34,530 bases of DNA from Arcobacteraceae bacterium (GTDB taxonomy: Bacteria > Campylobacterota > Campylobacteria > Campylobacterales > Arcobacteraceae). The DNA is taken from NCBI GenBank assembly GCA_048268245.1, contig JBLWVX010000027.1, positions 1-34,530 of the forward strand, given 5' to 3'. Made by a program: the position numbers and the translations under genes. The notes beneath the pieces were generated by a model. That model worked only from the letters and a program-made list of their open reading frames with translations, searched no databases and was not told where the DNA came from. Shown here one piece after another: positions 5,310-26,067 of the stretch (position 1 is the stretch's first letter; every line of letters starts with the position of its first letter).

Positions 5310-7294
5310 TATTTGTCTCCTGCTCTTTCATTTTTCTCTTTATAGTTCATTGGTAAATCAAAAGGCATTAATGCATCTTGAATTTCATGTCTATCTTTAC
5401 CTTCAGCTTCAAGTTTCTCTGTAATAGCGTCAACTTCTTCTTGTCTCTTAGCTGATAGTTCATTTTCAATAATCATACCCTTAGCACCATAACCTCTAAA
5501 TGCTGGAGGCATTTCCATTTTCATAATATCTAATTCAGCGTATTCAATTGTTGGCTCTAATTCATCAGGATTTGGCCATGAACATAATGTTCTATTCATC
5601 CAGTTAGCATCATCTCTTTTTAGATAATCTTCTCTATAGTGTGCCCCTCTAGATTCAGTTCTGTCTCTAGCACCTTTAGCAACACATAGTGCTACTTTAA
5701 GCATTTTAGGAACTCTATAAGCTTCTTCTAACTCTGGGTTACCACATCTTTCTTTAGATTTAACAGTAATTTGTTTAGTTTTAGCTAATAATTCTTTTAA
5801 TTCTTCAACAGCAGCTTTTAAAGGCTCACCAGATCTAAAGATACCAACTTGGTCATCCATAATGTCTTGCATTCTTCTTTTAATTCTAAAGATGTCTTCA
5901 TTTCCATTGTAAGAAAGGATTTCATCTAAATAAGCATCTTGCTCATCAATGAACTTTTGAACTGTAGAAGTAGGAATAGTAACATCATTAGCTAAACAGT
6001 AATCAGCAAAGTAGTTACCAATAATCATACCAGCAACAACTGTTTCAGATACTGAGTTTCCACCAAGTCTGTTAAATCCGTGCATATCCCAACATGAAGC
6101 TTCACCACAAGCGAATAAACCATTTAATCTAGTTGCTTCACCAGTTGGTTTAGTTCTAATTCCACCCATTGAGTAGTGTTGCATTGGTCTTACTGGAGCC
6201 CAACCTTTTTTACCTTCGTCAGCTGGATCAATACCATTAAAGATTTGACAAATTTCTTGTACATCTCTTAAGTTTTTTTCAATATGCTCTCTACCAAGAA
6301 TAGAAATATCTAACCATACGTGCTCACCATATGGAGAAGGTACACCTTTACCATTTCTGATGTGCTCAATCATTCTTCTAGAAACAACGTCTCTTGAAGC
6401 AAGTTCTTTTTTCTCTGGCTCGTAATCAGGCATAAATCTGTGACCATCAACATCTCTTAAGATACCACCATCACCTCTACAACCTTCTGTTAATAAAATA
6501 CCAGATGGAACAATTGGAGTTGGGTGGAACTGTACAGCTTCCATGTTTGATAATGTTGCAATACCAGTTTCTAAAGCAATAGCAGCACCTGTACCTTCAC
6601 AGATAACAGCATTTGTTGTTTGTCTAAATACTCTTCCGTATCCACCAGTTGCAATACAAGTTCCCTTTGCAACGTAAGCTTCTAATTCACCAGTAATTAA
6701 ATCTCTAACAACAGCACCATAACATCTTCCATCTTCGTGGATTAATGATAATGCTTCTTTTCTATCTCTAATATCAACGTCATGTTTTAAAGCTTCATTT
6801 GCAACACCAAATAACATAGTATGTCCAGTTGCATCAGCTGTATAACATGTTCTCCATTTTTTAGTACCACCGAAGTCTCTTGAAGTAATTAGACCATGTC
6901 TATCTTCTTCTTCAGTAATAGTAGTTTTCTTCGCGTTGATAACTGCTTCTCTAGTACCAGCTTCAACTCTAGACCAAGGCACACCCCATGAAGCTAATTC
7001 TCTAATAGCTTTTGGTGCAGTATGTACGAACATTCTTGCAACTTCTTGGTCACATCCCCAGTCAGAACCTTTTACAGTATCAGCAAAGTGTAAATCTTCA
7101 TTGTCTCCATCAGACATTTTCGAGTTACCTAATGAAGCTTGCATACCACCTTGTGCAGCAGCAGAGTGTGATCTTTTAACTGGAACTAAAGATAAAACAA
7201 TAGCGTTTAATCCTTTCTTTTGTGCAGCAACAGCAGCTCTAAGACCAGCTAGACCACCACCAATTACTAACGCATCACAGTAATTAATTTTCAT
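5309..7294 (-). CDS. frdA: Quinol:fumarate reductase flavoprotein subunit
   Basis: GGGLAG Rossmann motif, [10 protein letters not shown] covalent-FAD His, [30 protein letters not shown]. Wolinella/Campylobacter-type FrdA. Confidence 0.97.
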
Positions 7295-8094
7295 TACGCA
7301 ATTCCTCCAATAGTTTTATTTGGCATTTTGTATTCCATAACTTGTGCAGTTGGTTGATATTTGTTTCCAACATTATTGTTGTTAACTTGATCAATACCGA
7401 TTTTCATGTAAGCTGCAAGTGAAGCAAATCCTAATACTAAGAAGAATACAGTTAATCCCCATTTTACTTTTTTAAGTTTTACTCTGTTTTCTCTTGGGTT
7501 GTCTCCATCAAACCATCCCCATTTTACACATAGTCTGTAAAGACCAATTGTTCCGTGTAATTCAACAGCTAATAAAAGTAAAATATATAATGGCCACATC
7601 CACTCAGACCAAATTCTATCAGCAGAAGCGTAAGGTCCAATATCAGCAGAGTTAGTCATGATGATATATAAGTGTACAGAACCTAGGAAGAACATAGCAA
7701 AACCTGTTCCTGCTTGTGTAAACCATAATTTTGTATCATCGTGATTCATATGCTTAGCGTGAGCTTTCATAACTTGGTACTGTTTAAAGTTACCAGGTAA
7801 CTTTCTCATACCTAAACCTGCGTGTGCAATAAATACAACAAAAATTACAGCAGCTGCAATTGTTACTAATAATGGGTTTCCACCCTCAAAAATGAAACTA
7901 GCCTCTAAAAGCTTTGTTACTTTGTACATGAAGTCTTCTGAAATTAATATCGAAGATACTAATAACATGTGAGCCCACATGAATAGTGCTAAGAATAATC
8001 CTGTTGCACTTTGAAGATAATCAAGCTTCGCAGGTAATCTACTCTTTCTTCCCTCAACCGTTTTACCTAAATAACCTTCTATTAGGTCACTCAT
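7294..8094 (-). CDS. frdC: Fumarate reductase dihaem cytochrome b subunit
   Basis: Five hydrophobic segments and four haem His (WAHML, IAHAG, SVHLY, ELHGT). The Glu in AVELHG matches the E-pathway Glu of Wolinella FrdC. RBS AAGGA upstream. Confidence 0.95.
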
Positions 8095-8314: not shown

Positions 8315-9835
8315 CTATTTTATAAACAATGATTGCACTGCTGTTTGAGCTAGGGCAATGATTTGGTCAATGTTCATAGCAGGGATAAAGAATACAATCG
8401 CAGAACCAATACCACCTAAAATAGTCAAGATTGCAACAAATGCAATTGCATAAGTTGAAACCCTTTTATCGTTAAACTCTTTTGATACACATTCTTGTTT
8501 TGTTGGGTAAAAATACATCATAGCAATTAGTTTAAAATAGTAGTAAACTGAAACAATTGTTGCTATTACTGCAAGTATAGTAAGTCCAACATATCCTGCA
8601 TGAATTGCTTCAGTGAATACGTAAAATTTACCAATAAATCCTATAGTTGAAGGAATACCTGCAAGTGAAAATAAGAATATTGTCATCATAGCAGCTAAAA
8701 AAGGTCTCTCTTTTGCTAAACCTTTGAAGTCATCATATGTTACTCTTACATTTGTCTCTGAAATAATATGTGATGCTAAACCAAATGCACCAAGTGCAGA
8801 CAATAAATAAGCAATTAAGTAAAACATTGTTGCATATGCTGAATCAATATTTACTATTTCACTATCTTTATAGCTTAATGCTATAAATGCTAAAAGTAAA
8901 TACCCTGTATGAACTATAGATGAAGCAGCTAACATTCTTTTTATTATTTGTTGAGTTACAGCTAACCAAGTACCAAATACTAATGTAAATACAATAATAA
9001 CAGACATTATAGTATCCCAAAAATCAATAGTAAATCCAAGATGTTGTAAGAAGGCTCTTAGGAAAAAAGAGAATATAGCAATCTTAAATGTAGATGCCAT
9101 ATACGCAGTAATAACCATTGGTGCACCTCTATAAACATCAAGAACCCATGATTGAAATGGAAATGCAGCAATTTTGAAAAGAAAAGTAAACAGTATTAAT
9201 GTTAAACCTATATATACAAGTATCATATTTTCATCACTTGCACTTGCAATAAATGTAGCTATTTCGTTTAAGTTTGTACTTGCAGTTGCTCCGTATACTA
9301 AAACTAAACCTAATAAGTAAAATGCACCAATAAATGAACCTAAAACTAAATATTTAAATATTGCTTCAACTCTTTTTGAATCATCACTATTATAACCAAC
9401 CATAATATATACAGAAAATGAAGCAACCTCTAACGCAACATAAGCAGTAATAAGCTCGTTTGAGTGTCCTAATAACATCATTCCAAATAAAGCAAAAAGT
9501 AAAATACAGAAAAATTCACCTTTAAAGTATGATCTATGTTGGAAGTAATGTTCACCAATAAGAAGTGTTAAGAGTGTTCCTGCAATTAATAATATATTAA
9601 AAAAGTTTGAAAATGAATCAAAAACTAATGTGTTATGAAAAAGTTCATTGTATGGTTGTGCTTTATATAAAGTCCCTAAATCTGCTAAAGAAAAACCTAA
9701 AGCAACAATTAAAAATAAAGAAGCAACAACTATAAAGTTTTTAACTGAATATTTTTCATACATACTCATTATCATTAGTGTTAATGCACCAAGTAATACT
9801 GTTAATGCTGGAATTAAATAGATAAATTGACTCAT
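8315..9835 (-). CDS. nuoN: Complex I antiporter-like subunit N
   Basis: 506 aa polytopic membrane protein with [24 protein letters not shown] and [14 protein letters not shown]. Last gene of the nuo series. Confidence 0.95.
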
Positions 9836-11319
9836 TTTGTTGCTCCAATTTGTAAGATGTCATTTAAGTAGTGAGTAACTGTTGGCTCAAACTTATCCAT
9901 GAATACCTCAGGATAGAATCCCATAAGAAATACTAAAAATACCCAAGGAGCTAGTCCAATGATTTCTTTGATTTTTAAATCTCTCATTTTTACAACAGTT
10001 GAACCCTCAGGTCTATCTTGTAAAATTGCTCTTTGAAACATCCATAACATATATGAAGCACCTATAATTACAGTAAGTGCTGAAATATATCCTAAGGTAT
10101 GATTGAATTCATAAATACCAAAGATAATTAAAAGCTCTGATACAAATCCATTTGTTCCTGGAAGTCCAACATTTGCAAAAAGCATAATTGCAAATATAAA
10201 TGTAAAAATTGGTGCTTGTTTTGCTATTCCACCTAAATCTTTGATAGTTTTAAACCCTGTTTCTTCTTGTAGTAATCCAATAAGTAAAAATAAAGCACCT
10301 GTTGCAATTGCATGGGCAATAATTAAATAAAGTGCTCCATTTATACCATATTCATTTAATGAGAAAATACCAGCAGCAATAAAACTTAAGTGTGATGCTG
10401 ATGAGTAAGCAAACATTCTTTTAATATCATCTTGCATAAGTGCAGCAATACCAAAATAGATTAAACCAAATAATCCAATAGCTACAAACCAGGCAGAAAA
10501 TTCAACATAAATATCTGGGAATATTGGAATCATAAATCTTACGATTGCATAAACACCAAGTTTTGCCATTATAGAAGATAGTAAGAAAACTGCACCTGTA
10601 GGAGCATTTTTATATGTTTCCATAATCCATGTATGAAGTGGGAAGATAGGTATTTTTATAGCAAAAGCAGCTAAGAAACCTAAAAATAACCAAACTTTTT
10701 GACTATACCCAATAGTTGTAATTTTAGTTAATTCATCATAAGCAAAAGACCAAACTCCAAATTCATTAAAGTAAGCCACACCTAAGTATAAAATAGCAAT
10801 AAACATTAAAAGTGAGCCAACCATAGTATAAACAGTTACTTTAATAGTTGTAAATACTTTATTCCCAAACCCATACTGTCCTATAAGTAAAAATACTGGC
10901 AGAAGCATAATTTCCCAAAAGAAGTAGAAAAGTACAACATCAAGTGAAAGTAAAGTTCCTGTAACACCTGTTTGAACTAAAAGCATATTAATCCAGTAAC
11001 CTTTTGTTTTACCTTCCCATAAAAGAAGGTAAGAAGTAGGGATTAAAATAGCAATCATCATTAGAATTGTAAGTGAGAATCCATCTAAACCAATATAATA
11101 GTTAATACCATATGTACTAATCCATGATACATTTGTAACAAATTGCATGCCAGCACTTGGTTCAAATTCAATATAGATTTTTAAAACTAAAGCTAGAATA
11201 ACAGTAGTAGTTAAAAAAGCGATATTTCTAATTGTATTAACATCTCTTGTTGTAAGCATTAATCCAAATGCAACAACAGCAGGTAAAAATATAATAAATG
11301 AAAGAATATCTGAACTCAT
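9832..11319 (-). CDS. nuoM: Complex I antiporter-like subunit M
   Basis: [38 protein letters not shown]. Confidence 0.96.
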
Positions 11320-11320
11320 A

Positions 11321-13207
11321 CTATAATCCTAATGTATAAATTAAGTAGATAAATACGCATGTCATACCAACTAGCATAAACACTGCATAAAATCTTACGT
11401 TTGCATTTTGTATTATTGCAACTTTTTTACCTATATTTACAAATGTTTTAGATGAGTTCATTATAAATGCATCAATAATCTTATCATCTAAAACTTTGTC
11501 TATAAATAAAGATAGTTTTTTTGATGTTTTTACAAATATTGCATCGTAAATTTCATCAACATAGAATTTATTACCAATAAGACCAATTTCTTCTTCTGGT
11601 TTTTCTACATCAAACTTTGCATATTTTTTATAAGCAACAAAAATTCCTCCAACAGCAACAGCAACTGATAAAACAATTAATATCCATTCAACTGCTTGAC
11701 TCATATGTATTGTTTTAGAATTTAACTGAGCAAGCCAAGAGTCAACTTGTGCTTCTCCTCCAAAAATAGGAGCTAAGTTTAGATATCCTGCAAAAACTGC
11801 TCCAATGGCAAGAAGAAGCAATGGTATAGTTATAGTTTTTGATGTATAAACATATTCTACTTTGTGCTTAGTAGGAGCTACAAAAACAATGAAGTACATT
11901 CTAAACATATAAAATGCTGTTAAGAAAGCTGTTCCTAAAGCAATAAGCCAAATTAGGTATTGACCTTCTTGAAATGCAGCTGCTAAGATTGCATCCTTTG
12001 AGAAGAATCCTGAGAAAAATGGAATACCTGAAATTGCAATAACACCAATTAAGAATGTAAACTTGATAATTGGAAGATGTGCTCTATGTTGTGCTATTTC
12101 AAAAATATTTTGTTTATGATGAAGTGCAATTATAATACCACCTGCACCCATAAATAGCATTGCTTTAAAGAAAGCATGTGTAAATACATGAAATAAACCA
12201 GCAGAATAATAACCAAGTCCAACAGCTATAAACATATATCCTAATTGACTCATAGTTGAATAAGCAAGAATTTTCTTAATATCTGTTTGCCTTGTAGCAA
12301 TTATAGCAGCAAGTAGGGCAGAAAATGCACCAATATAAGCTATAAAAAGTCCAATCTCTTCAGCTTCAACATATAAGAAATGAAACCTTGCAACCATATA
12401 CACACCAGCTGTAACCATAGTTGCAGCATGAATTAGTGCAGAAATTGGTGTTGGTCCTGCCATAGCATCAGGAAGCCAAACATATAAAGGAATTTGTGCT
12501 GATTTACCCATAGCTCCTACAAATAGTAAAAAGCCTGATAAAACTAAAAGTTCACTTGAAGCATTTGTGATATTCTCTTCCAAAGAAGCAAAAGATAAAT
12601 CAACTCCTCCTAAAGCAAAAAATAGTGTTACAACTCCAAGTAAAAATCCAAAATCTCCAACTCTATTTGCAATAAAAGCTTTATTTGCAGCTATTACATT
12701 CTCTTTTTTTCCATAATAGAATTTAATTAAAAGGTATGAACAAACACCAACACCTTCCCATCCAATAAATAAAATAATTGGATTATCTGCTAAAACTAAA
12801 ATAAGCATAGAAGCTAAGAAAAGGTTAAAATAGGCAAAGAATTTACCAAAACCATTATCCCCTTTCATATATCCTATTGCATAAATATGAATTAGCCATC
12901 CTACAAATGTTACAAACATTGACATGAAAATAGATAAATTGTCACCTAAAAGAGCCATATCAATATTTAGTTTCTCAATATTTAACCATGTAAATAAATG
13001 CTGAGAAAAAGTGATACCTTCTTCTTTCATTTGTAAGAATAGTGTTAAAGTAATTAAAAAAGAGATTAATGGAGTTATACATCCAATTAAACTAAATGTC
13101 AATTCTGATATAGGTTTTCTTTTTATATGGTAGAAATATAAAGCTCCAAGTAAAATAGAACCTAATAAAGGAGATAAAATAATCCATACTAAAAGTGATG
13201 TACTCAT
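11321..13207 (-). CDS. nuoL: Complex I antiporter-like subunit L
   Basis: GWEGVG, NRVGD, GKSAQIPLYVWLPDAMAGPTPISALIHAATMV, HAFFKA. Confidence 0.97.
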   Translation of the reverse strand: MSTSLLVWIILSPLLGSILLGALYFYHIKRKPISELTFSLIGCITPLISFLITLTLFLQMKEEGITFSQHLFTWLNIEKLNIDMALLGDNLSIFMSMFVTFVGWLIHIYAIGYMKGDNGFGKFFAYFNLFLASMLILVLADNPIILFIGWEGVGVCSYLLIKFYYGKKENVIAANKAFIANRVGDFGFLLGVVTLFFALGGVDLSFASLEENITNASSELLVLSGFLLFVGAMGKSAQIPLYVWLPDAMAGPTPISALIHAATMVTAGVYMVARFHFLYVEAEEIGLFIAYIGAFSALLAAIIATRQTDIKKILAYSTMSQLGYMFIAVGLGYYSAGLFHVFTHAFFKAMLFMGAGGIIIALHHKQNIFEIAQHRAHLPIIKFTFLIGVIAISGIPFFSGFFSKDAILAAAFQEGQYLIWLIALGTAFLTAFYMFRMYFIVFVAPTKHKVEYVYTSKTITIPLLLLAIGAVFAGYLNLAPIFGGEAQVDSWLAQLNSKTIHMSQAVEWILIVLSVAVAVGGIFVAYKKYAKFDVEKPEEEIGLIGNKFYVDEIYDAIFVKTSKKLSLFIDKVLDDKIIDAFIMNSSKTFVNIGKKVAIIQNANVRFYAVFMLVGMTCVFIYLIYTLGL

Positions 13208-13518
13208 GACTTTTCTCCTTGTGATAAAGTATTAAATATATCAGAATCAAGAGATTTTCTTGATCTATATAAAAGAATTATTACAGATAAGAAAATAGCA
13301 GCTTCAGCAGCAGCAATTGCAATAACCATAATTGTAATAATTTGTGGATCCATATCAAAGTGATACCTTGCAAATGTAACTAAAAATAGATTTACTCCAT
13401 TTAGCATCATTTCAATTGACATATAAATTACAAAAACGTTTCTTCTTGCAATTACTCCAATAACTCCAAGGGAGAAAAGTAACATTGATACAAATGCATA
13501 AGATGTTAATGAAATCAT
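13204..13518 (-). CDS. nuoK: Complex I subunit K
   Basis: 104 aa with 3 TM segments, MSIEMMLNG and AAAEAA (conserved Glu residues). Confidence 0.95.
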   Translation of the reverse strand: MISLTSYAFVSMLLFSLGVIGVIARRNVFVIYMSIEMMLNGVNLFLVTFARYHFDMDPQIITIMVIAIAAAEAAIFLSVIILLYRSRKSLDSDIFNTLSQGEKS

Positions 13519-14057
13519 GATTTCTCTCCTTGTGTGTTAATCTCATTGTGAACTTTTGATTTTCTTTTTTTTGCAAGTACAACTGAACCAATTAAAGCGA
13601 TTAAAAGAAGAATTGAAATAAGTTCAAAAGCTACTAACCAGTTATCAAAAAGTTGTATACCTATAGGTTTTATATCTCCAAAATCTGTTTCACTAATACC
13701 TAAATCTTTTTTTGGAAGTTTTGCTACAGCACTTATAATTAAATAGTTTAAAGGAACCATTATAACTGCACCTATTGCTATGTTTTGGAACTTTTTAGGT
13801 TCTTTTGGTAAATCCTCTTCTTTAATATTTAAGAACATTAAAATAAATAGAATCAAAGTCATAATAGCACCTGCATAAACTATTATTTGAACTAGAAAAA
13901 GAAAAGTAGCGTTTAAAAGTGCAAATAGTCCTGCTACACTTAACATAGAGATTAAAACTCCAAGAGCACTATACATAGGGTTTGCATAAACAATCATCGC
14001 AACTGCACCTAATATAGCTAACAATGACAAGCCAATAAATATTAAATCAATCATCAC
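13515..14057 (-). CDS. nuoJ: Complex I subunit J
   Basis: QIIVYAGAIM and FELISILLL. The start may be the second Met (14054). Confidence 0.94.
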   Translation of the reverse strand: MMIDLIFIGLSLLAILGAVAMIVYANPMYSALGVLISMLSVAGLFALLNATFLFLVQIIVYAGAIMTLILFILMFLNIKEEDLPKEPKKFQNIAIGAVIMVPLNYLIISAVAKLPKKDLGISETDFGDIKPIGIQLFDNWLVAFELISILLLIALIGSVVLAKKRKSKVHNEINTQGEKS

Positions 14058-14553
14058 TTAAGTCCTTTGCTCTTTCATTTTTCATTAATGCTTTTTTATC
14101 TAAAAGAAAGTCTTCTCTTTTTGAACCTGTAAAAGAAAAAATTCCTGTATCCATTCTAATAGCATCACAAGGACAAGCCTCTACACAATAACCACAAAAT
14201 ACACACTCTAAAAGATCAATTTTAAACTCTTTTGGTCTTTTTTCAGCTTTTTCATCAAATCTTTCTTCAGCATCAATAAAAATACACTCAGCAGGACAAG
14301 CTGTTGCACACATATAACAAGCAACACATTTTTCACTGCCATCTTCCCATTTTGTAAGTCTATGAACACCTCTATATCTTTCTGTTAAATCATCAGGTTG
14401 AACTTCAGGATATTGCATAGTTTTTAAATTGTCTATGTCTTTTAAGTTTTTAGTGAAGTGTCTAAGTGTTGTTTTCATTCCTCCTGCAATAGCAGGTAAA
14501 TATAGTCTGTCTTTAAATGACTTACCATGTCTTTTTACTACTTTGATTCCCAT
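14047..14553 (-). CDS. nuoI: Complex I subunit I (2x4Fe-4S)
   Basis: YRGVH, CVACYMCATACP, CVFCGYCVEACPCDAI. Confidence 0.96.
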   Translation of the reverse strand: MGIKVVKRHGKSFKDRLYLPAIAGGMKTTLRHFTKNLKDIDNLKTMQYPEVQPDDLTERYRGVHRLTKWEDGSEKCVACYMCATACPAECIFIDAEERFDEKAEKRPKEFKIDLLECVFCGYCVEACPCDAIRMDTGIFSFTGSKREDFLLDKKALMKNERAKDLSDD

Positions 14554-14554
14554 T

Positions 14555-15832
14555 TTAACTTCCTAGTACTATAAAAGTTGCAGTTAAGATTACATTTAAA
14601 AGTGCTAATGGAATTAAAACTTTCCATCCTAGCATTTGTAATTGGTCATATCTAAACCTTAAAACTGTCCATCTAACCCAAATATATAAAAAGGCAACTA
14701 AGAAAAATTTAACTAAGAATGTTCCAATTTGTAAAATAGCTGTAACAATATTTATTCCATTTGTTCCAAGTCCAGTAACTAAAAATAGTGCTAAAAGACC
14801 AACTATTATAAAGCATAAAGACCAAAATGCTATAGTTAAAATTTTTGTTTCTTTTTCTCTTCTTTTATCACCTGTTCCAATTGTTTTATTGTTTTTTTTC
14901 ATCCATTTTGTAAAGATAAATATCTTTATTGGAAGTAAAATCATAATTGCAACTATTACATAGCTTATATTACTATGGATAGTTTGTGTATCAAGCCAAG
15001 GAATTTGGTATCCACCAAAAAATAAAGTTACTATAATAGCAGATGAAGCAGACATAGCAGCATATTCACCAACTTGGAAAAGACCAAATCTCATAGCTGA
15101 ATATTCAGTATGATAACCTGCAACAATTTCAGATTCTCCCTCAGCTATATCAAAAGGAGCTCTGTTTGTTTCTGCAAAAGCACATACTATAAATATAATA
15201 GCTGCTAAGGGTTGTATAAAAATACCCCACATTGGAATTACACCAAGGAAAGTTCCAGCTTGTGCATTTACAATATCGGTTAAATGAATTGAACCATATG
15301 AAATAACCATAGATACAACAGCTAAAGTTAAAGCAACTTCATAAGAGATAACTTGTGCACTTGCTCTAATTGAACCTAAAAGTCCATATTTATTTTGAGA
15401 AGCATATCCCCCAAGGATTATTCCATAAATTGAAAGTCCAGCAAAAGCTAAAAACCACATGATACCAAGTTCATTTGGAATAGCAGACATAATATGTGAT
15501 TCTCCATCTATTATTAAAACATCAGCAAACGGAATTGTCGCAAATGTTAAAAATGAACAGAAAAATACAATTGCAGGTGCAATAGAAAATAAAAACTTAT
15601 ATTTGATATGTGATGGTGTAAAGTCTTCTTTAAAAACAAGTTTTAACATATCTGCAAAACTTTGAATAAGTCCACCAAGTCTTAATGGTCCTATATTACA
15701 TCTATTTGGGCCAGTTCTATCTTGCATAAGTCCTGATATTCTTCTTTCCCACCATACAAAAAGCGGAGTTAAACCTACTGCTAATAGCGATGCAATGGAT
15801 ATATTTATTATTGTTATTGCTGTACTACTCAT
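14555..15832 (-). CDS. nuoH: Complex I subunit H, long form
   Basis: WERR...QDRTGPNR, AETNRAPFDIAEGESEIVAGYHTEYS, RFRYDQL...GWK. 425 aa, including a hydrophobic insertion. Confidence 0.96.
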   Translation of the reverse strand: MSSTAITIINISIASLLAVGLTPLFVWWERRISGLMQDRTGPNRCNIGPLRLGGLIQSFADMLKLVFKEDFTPSHIKYKFLFSIAPAIVFFCSFLTFATIPFADVLIIDGESHIMSAIPNELGIMWFLAFAGLSIYGIILGGYASQNKYGLLGSIRASAQVISYEVALTLAVVSMVISYGSIHLTDIVNAQAGTFLGVIPMWGIFIQPLAAIIFIVCAFAETNRAPFDIAEGESEIVAGYHTEYSAMRFGLFQVGEYAAMSASSAIIVTLFFGGYQIPWLDTQTIHSNISYVIVAIMILLPIKIFIFTKWMKKNNKTIGTGDKRREKETKILTIAFWSLCFIIVGLLALFLVTGLGTNGINIVTAILQIGTFLVKFFLVAFLYIWVRWTVLRFRYDQLQMLGWKVLIPLALLNVILTATFIVLGS

Positions 15833-17313: not shown

Positions 17314-18600
17314 TTAGTTTCCTGTATATAATTGTCTTGGTCTAGCAATTTTATGCTTAGGATCTTGTTTTAACTCAGACCATTGTGAAATCCATCCTGG
17401 AATTCTACCAATAACAAAGATTGGAGTAAACATCTCTACAGGAATTTTAAGTGCAGTTAAAATTACACCTGAATAGAAGTCAATATTTGGGTAAAGTCCT
17501 CTATCTTTGAAGTAATCATCATTTAATGCTGCTTCTTCAACTGCTGCTGCTACATCTAATAATTTAGAGTCTAAGTTTAACTCTTCTCTTAATTTATCTT
17601 GTAGTCCTTTTAAAGTCTCAGCTCTTGGATCTCTGTTTTTGTAAACTCTATGTCCGAATCCCATTAATCTGAATGGGTCATTTCTATCTTTAGCTTTTGC
17701 AATATAAGTTGGTACATTTTTAACATCACCAATTAATTTTAATTGATCCATAACTTTTTCATTTGCTCCACCATGAGCAGAACCCCATAATGCAGAAATA
17801 CCAGATGCAATAGATACATAAGGGTGAGCTTCAGTAGAACCAACATTTCTTACTGTAGTAGTAGAAGCATTTTGTTCATGATCAGCATGTAAAGTTAAGA
17901 TTGCATCTAATGCATCAACTTCAACTTGTTTAATCTCATCATTAACACCATTTCCTAAATACTTCATATTTCCACCTGGATATGCTCTTAACATGTATAA
18001 GAAGTTTTCAGTAAAGTATCTATTTACATCTGGGTAAATTAGAGGAGTACCAATTGAGTTTCTGTAAGCCATAGCTGCAATAGTAGGCATTTTTGCTAAG
18101 ATTCTTCTTCTCATTGTTTTAAATTCATCTTCATTCTCTAAATGTAAGTGATCTTTATAGAATGCAGATAAAGCCATAGTTGCTGCACCCATAGTTGCCA
18201 TTGGATGTGCACCATCTGGTAATGCATCAAATAATCTAATGATTCCTTCGTTTAAGAATGATCTGTGTCTAATTTCTAAATCAAAGTCTTTTGATTCAGC
18301 TTCAGATGGTAATCTTCCCATCATTAATAAGTGACAAACGTCAAGGTATGAGTGCTTTCCTGCTAATTCTTTGATATCATAACCTCTATATCTTAACTCT
18401 GAGTTTTCACCGTCAATAAATGTGATTTTTGATTCACAAGATGCAGTTGAAGTATATCCTGGATCGTATGTAAACATTCCTGAATCTTTATAAAAAGTTG
18501 AAATATCAACAACGCTTGGTCCTCTTGTTCCATCTATAATATTATATTCGTATGTATCACCATTTCTATTGTCAGTAAGTGTCATAGTATTTTTTGCCAT
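17314..18600 (-). CDS. gltA: Citrate synthase (type II-like, Gram-negative)
   Basis: YDPG...ITFIDG, LHADHEQNAST, HGGANE, MGFGHRVY, PNIDFYSG, RPRQLY. Strong RBS AAAGGAGA. Confidence 0.97.
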   Translation of the reverse strand: MAKNTMTLTDNRNGDTYEYNIIDGTRGPSVVDISTFYKDSGMFTYDPGYTSTASCESKITFIDGENSELRYRGYDIKELAGKHSYLDVCHLLMMGRLPSEAESKDFDLEIRHRSFLNEGIIRLFDALPDGAHPMATMGAATMALSAFYKDHLHLENEDEFKTMRRRILAKMPTIAAMAYRNSIGTPLIYPDVNRYFTENFLYMLRAYPGGNMKYLGNGVNDEIKQVEVDALDAILTLHADHEQNASTTTVRNVGSTEAHPYVSIASGISALWGSAHGGANEKVMDQLKLIGDVKNVPTYIAKAKDRNDPFRLMGFGHRVYKNRDPRAETLKGLQDKLREELNLDSKLLDVAAAVEEAALNDDYFKDRGLYPNIDFYSGVILTALKIPVEMFTPIFVIGRIPGWISQWSELKQDPKHKIARPRQLYTGN

Positions 18601-18641: not shown

Positions 18642-19907
18642 TTATTTTTTAAAATGTGCTTCAAACTCATGTTTGAATTTCTCAACAATACTTTTTATTA
18701 TATCTTTAACTGCTGGTGCAAATACACAGATTGTTTTTCCATTCATTGTATCACACACATCAAGTATTGTTGATAAATCTTCGTTTGAACCTTCACCATC
18801 TAAAATCTTTTTGATAATTTTATCTATCCATCCACAGCCCTCTCTACAAGGTGTGCATTGTCCACAAGACTCATGATGATAAAACTCAATTAAGTTTTTA
18901 GCAACATCAACCATAGATACTCCATGGGGAATAATCATCATTCCTCCTGTACCTAAAGTTGAACCAATATCCCACATTGATTCATAATCTAAATATGCCT
19001 TCTCAACCTCCTGTGCAGTTAAGATAGGACATGAAGCTCCTCCTGGAATCACAGCTTTAAGCTCTAATCCATCTTGAAGTCCTCCTCCTATCTTATTTAT
19101 TACATCTATCATTTTATTTCCGTAAGCTAGTTCATAAACCCCTGGGTTTTTAACTGGTCCACTCATTGCAAATAGCATAGTTCCTGGTGCTTTTTCCGTA
19201 CCATATTTTGTGTATGATTCATAACCATTTAACACAATATTCGGAACAGAAGCAATAGTTTCTACATTATTTACAGTTGCAGGATTTCCAAAGAACCATT
19301 CACACTCTTTACCATGTGGTTTAAGTCTTGGATGACCTCTCTTGCCTTCAATTGACTCAATTAGTGCTGATTTCTCTCCACAAATATAAGCACCTCCCCC
19401 TCTATGAACTGTAATGTCCATTCTATAGTCATATTTATTCATAACTTTAGGACCAATAATACCTGCCGCGTAAGCTTCTTCAATAGCAGCATTTAGTCTA
19501 TCAATGAAAAATTTATATTCACCTCTTATATAAATATAACAATCATGAGCACCAATTGCATATGATGAACAAATAATTCCTTCTATTAAAAGGTGTGGGT
19601 CATATTCAAAGATTTGTCTATCTTTGAAAGTTCCTGGTTCACTTTCATCCCCATTTGCAATTAAATATCTTGGTCTATCATCTATAGGTGGCATTAATTT
19701 CCATTTAGGTCCACAAGGTGCACCACCTCCACCTTTTCCTCTTAGACCACTTTTACAAACTTCTTCTGTAACTTCATCAGGACTCATAGAAAATAGTTTA
19801 TCTATAGATTCATATCTTCCATGTTTTAAAGCTACTTCTAATTTATGAGAATTAGGAATATCAAAATTTTTACTTACGATTTTTACTATCATATCATTAG
19901 CACTCAT
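18642..19907 (-). CDS. nuoF: Complex I flavoprotein subunit F with an atypical nucleotide pocket
   Basis: GLRGKGGGG Gly-rich loop, NGDESEPGTFKDR, GAYICGE, NNVET, ESCGQCTPCREG...C (N3). Confidence 0.95.
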   Translation of the reverse strand: MSANDMIVKIVSKNFDIPNSHKLEVALKHGRYESIDKLFSMSPDEVTEEVCKSGLRGKGGGGAPCGPKWKLMPPIDDRPRYLIANGDESEPGTFKDRQIFEYDPHLLIEGIICSSYAIGAHDCYIYIRGEYKFFIDRLNAAIEEAYAAGIIGPKVMNKYDYRMDITVHRGGGAYICGEKSALIESIEGKRGHPRLKPHGKECEWFFGNPATVNNVETIASVPNIVLNGYESYTKYGTEKAPGTMLFAMSGPVKNPGVYELAYGNKMIDVINKIGGGLQDGLELKAVIPGGASCPILTAQEVEKAYLDYESMWDIGSTLGTGGMMIIPHGVSMVDVAKNLIEFYHHESCGQCTPCREGCGWIDKIIKKILDGEGSNEDLSTILDVCDTMNGKTICVFAPAVKDIIKSIVEKFKHEFEAHFKK

Positions 19908-20382
19908 TTTTACACTCCTGTATAATATTTTTTAGTTTTTCAACAGTCATATTTTCATGATACTTATTATTTAAAGCAATCATTGGAGCTCCACCACAAG
20001 CACCTTGACATTCTACTTCACTAAAATGAAATTTACCATCAGCAGAAGTTTCTCCTGGTTCAATTCCAATAGTATCTTTTATAAACTTCTTAAGTTCAGG
20101 TGCTCCCATAATCATACATGAAAGAGTTTTACATAATTCAATATGATATGTTCCAATTGGTTTTAGATTAAACATTGTGTAAAAAGTAGCAAAACTATGA
20201 ACTTCTACAGGTGATTTTTCTAGTCTATCGGCCATAAATATCATAGCATCAGGACTTATCCATCCTTCTTGTTCTTGAACTAACCAAAGTCCTGGAAGCA
20301 TCATTGCATCTGAATTAGGATATTTTTTAAGTAATCTTTGAAACTCTTTTTCATTTTCTGGTGTATATTTAAATTTACTCAT
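19897..20382 (-). CDS. nuoE: Complex I subunit E (2Fe-2S N1a)
   Basis: ATFYTMF, CKTLSC...ECQGAC thioredoxin-like 2Fe-2S ligands. Confidence 0.95.
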   Translation of the reverse strand: MSKFKYTPENEKEFQRLLKKYPNSDAMMLPGLWLVQEQEGWISPDAMIFMADRLEKSPVEVHSFATFYTMFNLKPIGTYHIELCKTLSCMIMGAPELKKFIKDTIGIEPGETSADGKFHFSEVECQGACGGAPMIALNNKYHENMTVEKLKNIIQECKNEC

Positions 20383-22016
20383 TATCTATCAAACTCCCCT
20401 GCAATAAAGTTCATACTAGCCATTGTTACAATTGCATCAGCTAACATTGAACCTTCAACGATTTTTGCATAAGCACCAAGTGAATAAAAACATGGAGGTC
20501 TACATTTTACTTTATAAGAACTACCACTTCCATCACTAACTATAAAAAATCCAAGCTCACCATTTCCAGCTTCAGTTGAACCATAATATTCGCCTTTAGG
20601 AACTTTAATCCCTTCAAAAGTAAGTTTAAATTGGTTCATTAAACCTTCAATATTCCCATAAACATCTTTTTTAGAAGGTAATATAATTCCTTGATGATCT
20701 ACATTTAAAGGACCATCAGGTAACTCTTTCATTGCTTGTCTAATAATTCTAATACTTTGAGTCATTTCTTCAAATCTACACATCATTCTGTCGTATACAT
20801 CACCATGACTTCCTATAACTAAATCAAAATCATAGTTTTCATAACCATAATAAGGTTTGTCTTTTCTTAAGTCATGAGCTATACCTGTTGATCTTAAATT
20901 TGGTCCTGATACTCCTGCACTTATTGCAAATTCTGGTTTTATAACACCAACATCTTGTGTTCTGTCATGAAAAATTCTATTTTTTGCTATTAAGCTTAAT
21001 GCATCATCAATAGCTGTTTCAACATTTTTTAAAACTTGGTTTAAATCTTCTTCAAAACCATCATATAAATCAAATTCTAAACCTCCAATTCTTGTATAAG
21101 AGTTAGTAAGTCTAGCACCTGTTAGTTTTGAAAGTAAATCATATGCATCATCTCTTGGAGCAAATAAATACCAGAAGTTAGTTAGACCTCCTAAGTCAAC
21201 CATATTTGCTGCATTACATACTAAATGATCAATAATTCTGCTTAATTCACCAATTACAACTCTAATAGCTTTAGCTCTAGGAGTTATATCGATATTTAGC
21301 ATCTCTTCTACAGCTTTTGAAAATCCTATATTATTTAAAATTGCACTACAATAGTTCAGTCTATCTGTATATGGAATAACTTGTGAATAAGTGTGAGTTT
21401 CACAAGATTTTTCAAAACCTCTATGTAAGTAACCAATCTCAGTTACACATGATGTAATTGTTTCACCTTCCATAGCCACAAAGTTTCTAATTGTACCATG
21501 TGAAGCAGGGTGTGAAGGTCCAATATTTAACATCATTAAGTCATTTATTTCAGATTCACTATAGCCTTTAGCATGTAATCTTGGTAACATCTCATCCATT
21601 AGGTTTTCTGTTTCAGTACAGATTTGTCCTTTTGTAACAGGATAATCTTTTCTTAAAGGATGACCTATAAATTGATGGTGATTTAAAATTCTTTTTAAGT
21701 TTGGATGACCTATAAATTTTATACCATATTGGTCATAAGTTTCTCTCTCACCCCAGTTAGCTGCTTCATATAAAGAAGTAATACTTTGAACTTCTAAAGT
21801 ATCATCATTTACATAAGCCTTAACACTTATTTGTTTTTTAAAAGTTGAATCTCTTAAAATATAAACAACTGCAAATCTAGATGGAGTTACATCTGGATAT
21901 TTTAAATAATCAATTGCAGTTACATCAAGTAGTAAAGTATAGTTGTCTTCATTTTTAAGTTTAGAAATAGTTGATAAAATATCATTTGAATCAATTAGCA
22001 TATCACATTTAAGCAT
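20382..22016 (-). CDS. nuoCD: Fused complex I subunit C/D
   Basis: NuoC motifs ([15 protein letters not shown]) followed in frame by NuoD motifs ([26 protein letters not shown]-terminal GEFDR). Confidence 0.94.
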
Positions 22017-22524
22017 CTAGGAATCCTTTATACTCTTTGACTCTATCTTTTAATATAGATTCATCATTTGCTTTTTCTTGAATTCTCATAATTGCATCAA
22101 GTACAGCTTCTGGTCTAGGTGGACATCCTGCTACATATTCATCAACTGGAATAATCTCATCAATTCCTTGAACTGTAGTGTAGTTATCATAAAAACCACC
22201 AGAACATGCACATGCACCCATAGAAATAACCCATTTAGGTTCACACATTTGTTCATAGATTTTTTTTAGAATGGGTGCTTGTTTATATGAAATAGTTCCT
22301 GCAACAATAAGTAGGTCTGCTTGTCTTGGTGAAAATCTTACAACTTCTGCTCCAAATCTTGATAAATCATACTTAGCTGCTGCTACTGACATAAATTCAA
22401 TACCACAACATGCAGTACCAAATGCCATTGGCCATAAAGAATATGATCTTCCCCAGTTTACTGCGTGATCTAATTTTGTAGTTACAATAGAATCACCTAA
22501 TTTTGATTCAGCTCCTAATCCCAT
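22009..22524 (-). CDS. nuoB: Complex I subunit B (N2 cluster)
   Basis: [29 protein letters not shown]. Confidence 0.97.
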
Positions 22525-22877
22525 GATAATGCCTTTTTCTTATACATATAGATTAAGCCTAAAAATAAAAGTCCAATAAAAATGAACATTTTAATTAAAC
22601 CAGTAGCACCAAGTTCGGCAACATTAACTGCCCAAGGGAACATAAAAATGATTTCTACGTCAAATAATAAAAATGAAATAGCTATTAAATAGAATTTAAC
22701 AGAAAATCTTATGTTTGTATTTCCTACTGGATTAGATACACCACTCTCGTAAACACTGTTTTTCAGAACTGCATTTTCATTTTTTGGTCCTATATATCTT
22801 GTAAGAGTAAATACACCTACAAGGATTAGACCAATAGCAACAAAAATAACAGATGCAAGAACAAGTTCTGTTGACAT
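22515..22877 (-). CDS. nuoA: Complex I subunit A
   Basis: YESG loop, FLLFDVEIIFMFPWA, C-terminal ALSWD. RBS AGGA. Confidence 0.95.
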   Translation of the reverse strand: MSTELVLASVIFVAIGLILVGVFTLTRYIGPKNENAVLKNSVYESGVSNPVGNTNIRFSVKFYLIAISFLLFDVEIIFMFPWAVNVAELGATGLIKMFIFIGLLFLGLIYMYKKKALSWD

Positions 22878-24252: not shown

Positions 24253-26067
24253 ATGAAAGAAGCAATTGAACTATTAAAAAAACATGATCTATTAAGAGTT
24301 ATTGATGATGAATTAGATATTTATTTAGAAATACCTCATATAGCATATGTTGAAGTTAAAAAAGAAGACTCTAAGGCTTTATTATTTACAAATGTTGTAG
24401 ATAAAAAGAATAATAAGAAATTTGATATTCCAGTATTGATGAATGTATTTTGTAATGAAAAAGCAGTAAAACTGTTTATTGGAGATGGAGATAAAATTGG
24501 TAGTGAGATTGAATCATTGCTTAAAATGAAGCCTCCAACAACATTTAGTGAAAAACTATCAACTTTTGGTAAGTTATTTGCTTTAAAAAATACAATTCCT
24601 AAGAAAAATAGAGGAAAAGGTGAGTGTCAAGAAGTAGTAAAACTTGGAGTAGACGCAAAGCTTTCTGATTTACCAGTTCTTACAACTTGGGAGCAAGATG
24701 GTGGTCCATTTATTACAATGGGACAAGTATATACTACATCATTGAATGGTGAAATGAAAAACTTAGGTATGTATAGACTTCAAGTATATGAAGATAATAC
24801 TTTAGGATTACACTGGCAAATACATAAAGACTCAAATCATTTCTTCCATGAATATAAAAAAGCTGGAAAGAAAATGCCAGTATCTATCGGTATTGGTGGA
24901 GATCCTATGTATATTTGGTGTGGACAAGCACCACTTCCTATTGGTATTTTTGAACTAATGTTATACGGTTTTGTGAAAAACAAAAATGCACAATTAGTAA
25001 AATCAATTACTAATGATATATATGTACCAAGAGACAATGATTTCATAATTGAAGGATTTGTTGATACTTCAAAACTAAGAATTGAAGGACCCTTTGGAGA
25101 TCATACAGGATATTATACTTTAGAAGAAGATTATCCTTTTATGGAAGTAACTGCTATTACTCATAAGAAAGAACCAACATACTTAGCAACAGTTGTTGGT
25201 AAACCGCCTTTAGAAGATAAGTATATGGGACATGCAACTGAAAGAATTTTCTTACCTTTACTTAAAACAACAGCACCTGATTTAATAGATTATTATATGC
25301 CAGAAAATGGAGTTTTTCATAATCTAATTTTGGCAAAAATTAAAACTTTATATCCTGGTCATGCAACTCAAATGATGCATGCATTTTGGGGAGTAGGGCA
25401 AATGTCATTTGTAAAACATGCAATTTTTGTAAATGAAGATGCACCAGATTTAACTGACCATGATGCTGTAGTTGAACATATTTTAAATAGAATTGATATA
25501 GATGATCTAATGATTTCAAAAGGTGTTGTTGATGCTCTTGATCACTCATCTCCAAAATTTGCAGTTGGTGGTAAGTTGGGATTAGATTGTACTGGTGATG
25601 AAATAGATGAATTAGGTATTACTCTTCTTTCGGATTTAGAATTATTATCTAAGATGAAAGAACTAACTGATGAGGTTAAAAATCTTAAACAGTATTATAC
25701 AAATACAAAAAATCCAGTTACTGTTATAACTGTAGATAAAAAAAGAAATCAAAAAGAAGTATTTGAAGTTTTAAAACCTTTATATGAAAATATTAAAATT
25801 TTAATTATAATTGATGAGGCTAATCAAAATGATGTTGAAAACCCATACATGTTAGTGTGGAGGGTTGTAAATAATATAGATTCAAATAGAGATTTATATA
25901 TAGACTCAAATACTTTATGTTTAGATGGAACGAATAAAAACTCATTTGATAATTTCAAAAGAAGATGGCCTGATGATGTTGATTGTTCAAAAGATGTAAT
26001 TGAGTCATTAAGAAAAAGAGGTATTTTAGATATTGATGATGATTTTATAAAAAAATATCAAATTTAA
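24253..26067 (+). CDS. UbiD-family prenylated-FMN decarboxylase; menaquinone (futalosine pathway) decarboxylase, MqnL-like
   Basis: NLGMYRLQ, EGPFGDHTGYY, VVGKPPLED, KLGLDCT. 604 aa long form. Campylobacterota make menaquinone by the futalosine route. Confidence 0.85.
   Translation: MKEAIELLKKHDLLRVIDDELDIYLEIPHIAYVEVKKEDSKALLFTNVVDKKNNKKFDIPVLMNVFCNEKAVKLFIGDGDKIGSEIESLLKMKPPTTFSEKLSTFGKLFALKNTIPKKNRGKGECQEVVKLGVDAKLSDLPVLTTWEQDGGPFITMGQVYTTSLNGEMKNLGMYRLQVYEDNTLGLHWQIHKDSNHFFHEYKKAGKKMPVSIGIGGDPMYIWCGQAPLPIGIFELMLYGFVKNKNAQLVKSITNDIYVPRDNDFIIEGFVDTSKLRIEGPFGDHTGYYTLEEDYPFMEVTAITHKKEPTYLATVVGKPPLEDKYMGHATERIFLPLLKTTAPDLIDYYMPENGVFHNLILAKIKTLYPGHATQMMHAFWGVGQMSFVKHAIFVNEDAPDLTDHDAVVEHILNRIDIDDLMISKGVVDALDHSSPKFAVGGKLGLDCTGDEIDELGITLLSDLELLSKMKELTDEVKNLKQYYTNTKNPVTVITVDKKRNQKEVFEVLKPLYENIKILIIIDEANQNDVENPYMLVWRVVNNIDSNRDLYIDSNTLCLDGTNKNSFDNFKRRWPDDVDCSKDVIESLRKRGILDIDDDFIKKYQI

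Follow-up and report, generated by a model that had tools for sequence, protein, structure and literature searches.

Complex I is defined by its use of reduced nicotinamide adenine dinucleotide (NADH). In its NuoF subunit (Nqo1 in T. thermophilus), the second Glu of a GEE motif, E183 in E. coli and E185 in T. thermophilus, binds the adenosine ribose of the nucleotide and excludes a 2'-phosphate. Three phenylalanines of Nqo1 (F70, F78 and F205) reportedly stack the adenine in the Nqo1-NADH structure credited to Berrisford 2009, and substitution of E183 in E. coli NuoF is said, in work ascribed to Morina et al. 2011, to raise oxidation of the phosphorylated nucleotide, NADPH. To our knowledge, NADPH use by complex I is known only from laboratory mutants. 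The subject here is a natural nuoF gene in a 34,530-nucleotide stretch of DNA (hereafter the window) from Arcobacteraceae bacterium GCA_048268245.1 (contig JBLWVX010000027.1, forward strand). The encoded NuoF belongs to a Campylobacterota clade in which the adenosine half of the nucleotide pocket differs from that of other family members, and the rebuilt pocket suggests NADPH use.

The sole solved NADP+-specific relative is HydB of T. kivui, a subunit of a soluble electron-bifurcating hydrogenase. The substrate of HydABC is NADP+ in T. kivui and NAD+ in A. woodii; in the T. kivui HydB structure (8A6T), Phe205, Arg340 and the Gly-rich loop hold the NADP+ in place (PMC10021017). The HoxF protein of C. 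necator, engineered to carry E341A/S342R by Preissler et al., accepts NADP+ with a Km near the wild-type Km for NAD+, according to two papers (PMC10127272, PMC11563201). Within the Campylobacterota themselves, the epsilon-type complex I of C. jejuni and H. pylori is described as taking its electrons from flavodoxin, with NuoX and NuoY substituting for NuoE and NuoF (PMC6682613, PMC4453560).

The nuoF product was identified by several comparisons. In Pfam it contains PF01512 (Complex1_51K; 149.1 bits against a cut-off of 31.2), PF10589 for the C-terminal N3 [4Fe-4S] domain (103.2 bits) and an SLBB domain. Among the NCBIfam models it passes the curated NuoF model NF010120 (436 bits, cut-off 389); it scores below the cut-off of TIGR01959 (497.1 bits against 558.65) and likewise does not reach NF008436. 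A phmmer search of Protein Data Bank chains matched it to solved NuoF chains with an E-value of 1e-110. Identity to canonical relatives is 43–50%, with E. coli K-12 NuoF at 43% (phmmer, BLASTP). The AlphaFold2 model has a mean predicted local distance difference test score (pLDDT) of 93.5 and superposes on solved NuoF chains with a template modelling score of 0.94 and a root mean square deviation of 1.5–2.1 Å; confidence reaches its minimum, pLDDT 68, in the rebuilt loop at residues 191–200. With canonical NuoF, Nqo1 and NDUFV1 (E. coli, T. thermophilus, Aquifex aeolicus, mitochondria) the protein thus shares the fold, the flavin mononucleotide (FMN) motifs NGDESEPG and VNNVET, and the cysteines of the N3 cluster, of which C348, C351, C354 and C394 are invariant in the alignment. 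A NuoE partner and a nuoA-N operon are also held in common with canonical complex I. The initial annotation, made from the sequence alone, had considered the protein free of decay because its cofactor motifs were intact, and this was borne out: NGDESEPG, NNVET and the four N3 cysteines are all kept. A pseudogene is ruled out by the intact frame, the invariant cofactor motifs and the conservation of the variant residues.

The departures lie in the residues that line the adenosine end of the pocket. Residues 170–182 read GGGAYICGEKSAL and residues 194–209 read RLKPHGKECEWFFGNP. The motifs GEK, RGKGGGGA and KPHGK, and the AAA codon of K179 at 19373–19371, appear in the DNA and its translation exactly as first annotated. 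The alignment behind that annotation had been made by eye and proved right. In phmmer alignment with T. thermophilus Nqo1 (2fug_1), free of gaps near the motifs, A63 corresponds to F70, L71 to F78, K179 to E185, and H198, G199 and K200 to P204, F205 and P206; BLASTP placed K179 on E183 of E. coli K-12 NuoF. Compared with canonical NuoF, the adenosine subsite therefore carries F to A63, E to K179, PPFP to PHGK, G to W204 and R to K58. The protein departs from the canonical adenosine pocket for NADH in its Gly-loop Phe, in the second Glu of GEE and in the PPFP segment, which concerns substrate recognition and leaves the homology unaffected.

These residues are rare in the family. The family was sampled as the best 150 of 17,849 family matches, taken as representatives of 50%-identity clusters. 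Position 179 is E in 133 of them and S in five; the others have D, G, A, M or Q there, and none has K. Position 63 is F in 135 and Y in eight, but never A; position 198 is P in 142 and never H; position 199 is F or Y in 130 and never G; position 200 is P in 134 and never K. Counts for A63, K179, PHGK, W204 and K58 at their positions are at most at chance level. Not all of the residues first singled out have this standing. Three phenylalanines had been thought lost, and the changes from F70 to A63 and from F205 to G199 hold; the position of F78, however, is variable (F in 62 representatives, L in 20) and is Leu in E. coli NuoF. K70, first listed among the nearby basic residues, is not diagnostic, as its position is also variable (17 of the 150 have K and another 17 have R). 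R58K and G204W are pocket departures that the initial annotation had not named.

An unbiased scan for clade-specific departures compared 24 divergent clade members with the same 150 representatives, and retained columns in which at least 80% of the representatives agree and no more than 5% share the commonest residue of the clade. This left nine columns, two of which are alignment gaps; the seven real sites are 58, 63, 113, 179, 198, 200 and 204. Six of these seven fall within the three nucleotide-pocket motifs, where the clade shows 58 R to K, 63 F to A or G, 179 E to K, 198 P to H, K or Q, 200 P to K or R, and 204 G to W, F or Y. On the side of FMN, nicotinamide and pyrophosphate, E88 and E90 of NGDESEPG, Y174, E178, K196, NNVET and the Gly run are all kept. 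Hence the remodelling is confined to the adenosine half, as would be expected of a site that continues to bind a nicotinamide dinucleotide and reads only its far end differently.

The variant pocket is conserved well beyond the window. Among 120 listed close homologs with 81–91% identity, from Arcobacter, Halarcobacter, Malaciobacter and other records, [IV]CGEKSAL is present in all and KPHG in 116. Fifty loci were read, namely the window's own, 29 from a search of Arcobacteraceae and 20 from other lineages; all of them, drawn from several families and with identities as low as 54%, have GEK, RGKGGGG[AG] and KP[HKQ]. A survey of GEK in relatives had been proposed at the outset, and its outcome is that close relatives do not carry GEE. 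In a FastTree phylogeny of the clade loci and the 150 representatives, the clade was monophyletic with a support of 1.0. An ortholog-level NuoF match was present in 82 of 121 sampled Arcobacteraceae genomes (table count), in 34 of the 301 sampled genomes of the phylum, and in only one of 23 sampled genomes of one further family (f7). The pocket change in NuoF is under selection across the whole clade. A single-lineage oddity or a sequencing error is ruled out by the presence of GEK in 120/120 listed homologs and 50/50 loci.

One genome per prokaryote species was also scanned with a back-translated pattern, [FY][IV]CGEK[ST]AL[ILMV]E, which gave at least 119 stretches, and 80 loci were examined. 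Since the pattern selects on GEK, it shows breadth rather than frequency and says nothing about GEK itself. A Campylobacterota-type motif follows downstream in 79 of the 80 loci; these are labelled Arcobacteraceae, Sulfurospirillum, Sulfurimonas, Sulfurovum and Nitratifractor, and their G+C content reaches 62%. Of the 76 loci with a readable Gly-rich loop, 75 have K at position 58; at position 63, 73 have A, two have G and one has F. Position 200 is K in 65 of the 80 loci, and position 204 is aromatic (W, Y or F) in 78. The sole locus of another type, L123, is labelled uncultured Clostridia bacterium and has a NuoF-like frame with YVCGEKTAL and RLKSPYTNY downstream; its Glu-to-Lys change is possibly an independent event. 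Other Campylobacterota also encode a NuoF-like paralog of 535–550 amino acids, about 38% identical (L176–L181), which is absent from the window's genome. It lacks the second Glu, reading GEATAL in five of six cases and GETTAI in one, and has KPPHL for KPPFP and a Tyr in the Gly loop in all six. There may be a tendency away from NAD-type pockets throughout the phylum.

T. kivui HydB is changed at two of the positions that differ in the clade. It belongs to the same protein family, and its chain 8a6t_B reads FVCGESTAL ... RPPRT, so that, counted along the alignment, S320 occupies the second-Glu position and R340 the position of the PPFP Phe. The NAD-type chains 7q4v_B, 7t2r_B, 9bov_B and 8oh5_B have GEE and PPFP. 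The second-Glu position is thus non-acidic in both proteins, although it is Ser in HydB and Lys in the window's NuoF. In place of R340, NuoF has G199 flanked by H198 and K200, in the least confidently modelled loop. HydB differs further in that it keeps the Gly-loop Phe (F205) and both Pro, whereas NuoF has A63, and in that it serves a hydrogenase rather than a complex I. Five of the 150 family representatives (P0164, P0189, P0221, P0235 and P0270) are long HydB-like proteins that resemble the NADP-specific T. kivui HydB in having VCGESTAL together with an altered PPFP segment. Three of them (P0164, P0235 and P0270) have K-[YH]-[IV]-H for KPPF, a variant without a solved structure. Judging from sequence, E341 of HoxF appears to be the same Glu as that replaced by K179; E341A/S342R removes it and adds a positive charge beside it, as in the window's NuoF. 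The HoxF variants and E. coli E183 substitutions are laboratory point mutants, whereas the present case is a natural, multi-site and clade-wide remodelling.

From these substitutions, their homology to solved pocket residues, their conservation and the NADP+-specific precedent, we infer the contacts, the specificity and the physiological direction. NuoF is best explained as a subunit of a complete and functional 14-subunit complex I, in which the adenosine subsite has been rebuilt across the NuoEF-type clade of Campylobacterota. The pocket is unchanged around FMN, the nicotinamide with its ribose, and the pyrophosphate, so that hydride transfer from a nicotinamide dinucleotide to FMN is kept. 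The adenosine half has lost the acidic reader of the 2'-hydroxyl (Glu to Lys179), the Gly-loop Phe (now Ala63) and the Pro-Pro-Phe-Pro wall (now His198-Gly199-Lys200), and Trp204 is an aromatic residue new to it. Most probably the 2'-phosphate of NADPH can be accommodated as a result: Lys179 and the basic residues at 198 and 200 would pair with the phosphate, and the adenine would stack anew on Trp204. Such an enzyme would oxidise NADPH in preference to NADH, or both, as an NAD(P)H:menaquinone oxidoreductase, proton-pumping like any complex I. We incline, without strong conviction, to regard the clade as comprising such NADPH-accepting enzymes. The changed electron donor proposed in the initial annotation gains from the change in the adenosine half and from the HydB and HoxF parallels, while NADPH activity itself is predicted from the pocket. 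A bolder version, in which all NuoEF-type complex I of the Campylobacterota (Arcobacteraceae, Sulfurospirillum-type bacteria, a Campylobacter genus without NuoX and some sulfur oxidisers) is a dedicated proton-pumping NADPH:menaquinone oxidoreductase and so the first natural NADPH-specific complex I, is possible but doubtful.

Several points weigh against NADPH use. Lys can hydrogen-bond ribose hydroxyls too, and GEK alone is therefore compatible with NADH. In T. kivui HydB, NADP+ is still touched by the Gly-loop Phe, which is lost here, so the remodelling exceeds a simple NADP switch. H198 and K200, to which the initial annotation had drawn attention, are genuine departures of the clade, but a basic residue is universal at neither site: of the 80 pattern-scan loci, 15 have A, Q, F, P or S at position 198, and 15 have P, Q or T at position 200. 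The structural model is least confident (pLDDT 68) in precisely the rebuilt loop. No biochemical measurement for any member of the clade was found in the literature, and five publications that mention the enzyme treat it as a canonical or standard NADH type (PMC6682613, PMC4585668, PMC5630845, PMC2147049, PMC4584990). A genus with only the NuoEF-type complex I is, moreover, reported to have a pyruvate dehydrogenase complex (PMC2147049); an outlet for NADH would then be needed, which favours dual over strict NADPH use.

The window's genome has one NuoF and two nuo operons. The second, on contig C9 (L054, 5927–12420), is of the epsilon type, the flavodoxin/ferredoxin-linked form. It encodes NuoX (PF16514, 91 amino acids), an 824-residue NuoG and a 269-residue protein that has no Pfam match and weakly matches part of the NCBIfam NuoG model. 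The operon in the window has NuoE (PF01257) and NuoF (PF01512) rather than NuoX and NuoY, and is thus not of this type. The epsilon type, found in the same phylum, departs from NADH and has no NuoE, NuoF or FMN site; the window's operon, whose use of NADPH would likewise be a departure, keeps both subunits. NuoX is present in 248 of the 301 sampled genomes of the phylum. In the Sulfurospirillum-like family f11, it occurs in 11 of 11 genomes and GEK-type NuoF in 10 of 11. Two genera have the GEK type and no NuoX: g33 (GEK NuoF 8/10, NuoX 0/10) and g10 (6/6 and 0/6). To judge from PMC5630845 and PMC6682613, these two genera probably correspond to the groups of C. fetus and A. butzleri. Electron-flow enzymes were searched for in five genomes, the window's own and two each of g10 and g33. 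The transhydrogenase PntB was found in none of the five, with a positive E. coli control. POR/OOR-type enzymes are present in all five (4/4 in g33 and g10) and flavodoxin in four (3/4 in g33 and g10). A route from flavodoxin through NADP+ to complex I, possibly by way of FqrB, would fit. The type 2 NADH dehydrogenase profile PF22366 matched nothing in the five genomes and also missed the E. coli control, and is thus uninformative on another NADH outlet.

Three other explanations of the pocket have to be weighed. Complex I of the clade could still be specific for NADH and bind the adenosine differently, with Lys179 hydrogen-bonded to the ribose hydroxyls and Trp204 replacing the Phe stack; the new mode of binding might suit a microaerophilic way of life by adjusting oxygen reactivity, the affinity for NADH or the release of NAD+. 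In its favour, no change is seen on the side of nicotinamide, FMN and pyrophosphate, and the conserved aromatic residue at position 204 could restore stacking. The literature cited above assumes NADH for the enzyme, and further reports that A. butzleri has nuoEF instead of nuoXY (PMC6682613) and a predicted pyruvate dehydrogenase complex, which makes NADH (PMC2147049). However, a Glu-to-Lys change at the residue that reads the ribose is the classic signature of a switch from NAD to NADP, Lys at 179 was seen in none of the 150 nearest representatives, the same two positions are changed in T. kivui HydB, and HoxF without this Glu lets NADP+ in, as PMC10127272 and PMC11563201 indicate. Strict NADH specificity is for these reasons rather unlikely in our estimate.

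The remaining two explanations keep a changed function and differ from NADPH oxidation in the partner or in the direction. One of them, raised in the initial annotation, takes the widened basic cavity for a dock at which reduced flavodoxin or ferredoxin reduces the FMN of NuoF directly, in analogy to NuoX/NuoY of C. jejuni. Bulky residues have indeed been removed and positive charge added near the mouth of the cavity; in g33 and g10 this is the sole complex I found, and most of the genomes searched there have the POR/OOR-type enzymes and flavodoxin listed above. Yet the window's genome and 10 of the 11 f11 genomes carry the GEK NuoF in addition to a separate NuoX-type operon, and the presence of both types within one genome implies that the two are not redundant. 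One-electron carriers, moreover, need neither FMN nor the retained E90, Y174, E178, K196 and Gly-rich loop, all of which stay under selection. The separate operon and the retained nicotinamide- and pyrophosphate-side residues thus weaken the docking idea, which we consider very improbable; a predicted complex of NuoF, NuoE and FMN with the genome's own flavodoxin scored 0.00, which is evidence neither way. It is also conceivable, if improbable, that the pocket is of the NADP(H) type and the enzyme runs mainly in reverse, so that proton motive force would be spent on reducing NADP+ with menaquinol to supply biosynthesis or CO2 fixation. The clade has sulfur-oxidising members (Sulfurimonas, Sulfurovum, Nitratifractor), and reverse electron flow via complex I has been discussed for chemolithotrophs (PMC4453560; bioRxiv 10.1101/717884). 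Against this, the clade is commonest in the heterotrophic Arcobacteraceae (the 82 of 121 genomes given above) and scarce in f7 (1 of 23), and a citrate synthase gene lies within the Arcobacteraceae operon (28 of 29 loci), which points to oxidative metabolism.

The window's operon runs nuoA-B-CD-E-F-(gltA)-G-H-I-J-K-L-M-N on the minus strand, and its features are listed in Table 1. The citrate synthase gene gltA adjoins nuoF in those 28 of 29 Arcobacteraceae loci and was not found in the 20 nuoF loci of other Campylobacterota lineages. Eleven of these 20 show the order nuoCD-E-F-G, and 10 of the 11 continue into nuoH. NuoG is short here, compared with 824 amino acids in the genome's other operon and 908 in E. 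coli. Its N-terminal Fe-S domains are present and its molybdopterin-like part is truncated; it scores 363.8 bits with TIGR01973, under the cut-off of 470. The genes from nuoH to nuoN match the Pfam families NADHdh, Fer4, Oxidored_q3, Oxidored_q2 and Proton_antipo_M (three times). nuoH itself (14555–15832, minus strand) is long, at 425 amino acids, and its Pfam match is split into two stretches. Just downstream of nuoN lies an Sdh_cyt gene (7294–8094, minus strand) for a succinate dehydrogenase/fumarate reductase membrane subunit, and upstream of the operon, on the opposite strand, a UbiD-family decarboxylase of 604 amino acids is encoded (24253–26067, plus strand). In the Sulfurospirillum-like f11 family, no nuoG or nuoH match occurs within 4 kb of nuoF in any of eight loci, and at one of the family's loci (L034, 1–5233) the open reading frames beyond nuoF are on the opposite strand; the N-module genes of f11 seem to be separated from nuoG-N.

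Table 1. Coordinates of nuoF, its pocket motifs and the other nuo operon features in the window.
Feature	Position	Strand	Basis
nuoF, FMN / N3 [4Fe-4S] subunit of complex I, 421 amino acids	18642..19907	-	open reading frame, Pfam, NCBIfam, structure model
Gly-rich loop, residues 54-73, GLRGKGGGGAPCGPKWKLMP; R58K and F63A against family consensus	19689..19748	-	alignments
YICGEKSAL, residues 174-182; K179 in place of second Glu of GEE	19362..19388	-	alignments
KPHGKECEWFFG, residues 196-207, for KPPFPxxxGLWG; P198H, F199G, P200K, G204W; K196 kept	19287..19322	-	alignments
nuoA	22515-22877	-	Pfam
nuoB	22009-22524	-	Pfam
nuoCD, fused, 544 amino acids	20382-22016	-	Pfam
nuoE, 161 amino acids, thioredoxin-like [2Fe-2S] (N1a), four Cys present	19897..20382	-	PF01257, 170.5 bits
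gltA, citrate synthase, 428 amino acids, between nuoF and nuoG	17314..18600	-	PF00285, 428.5 bits
nuoG, short, 478 amino acids	15829..17265	-	Fer2_4, NADH-G_4Fe-4S_3, Fer4_Nqo3
nuoH, I, J, K, L, M, N (membrane arm and Fe-S subunit NuoI)	8315..15832	-	Pfam

A search of the full-text literature, with subscription-journal papers and bioRxiv supplements outside its scope, returned no account of the GEK pocket variant and none of this complex using NADPH. If complex I of this clade does accept NADPH, respiration would have to be redrawn for Arcobacter, Sulfurospirillum and the Campylobacter genus without NuoX. NADPH use would explain how electrons are fed to the chain in bacteria that lack the PntAB transhydrogenase and have NADP-linked catabolism. 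Should the enzyme be dedicated to NADPH, it would, where it is the sole complex I, supply the missing link that leads from POR/OOR through flavodoxin and NADP+ to the quinone pool. The NuoF clade would also provide a natural template for NADPH-driven proton pumping.

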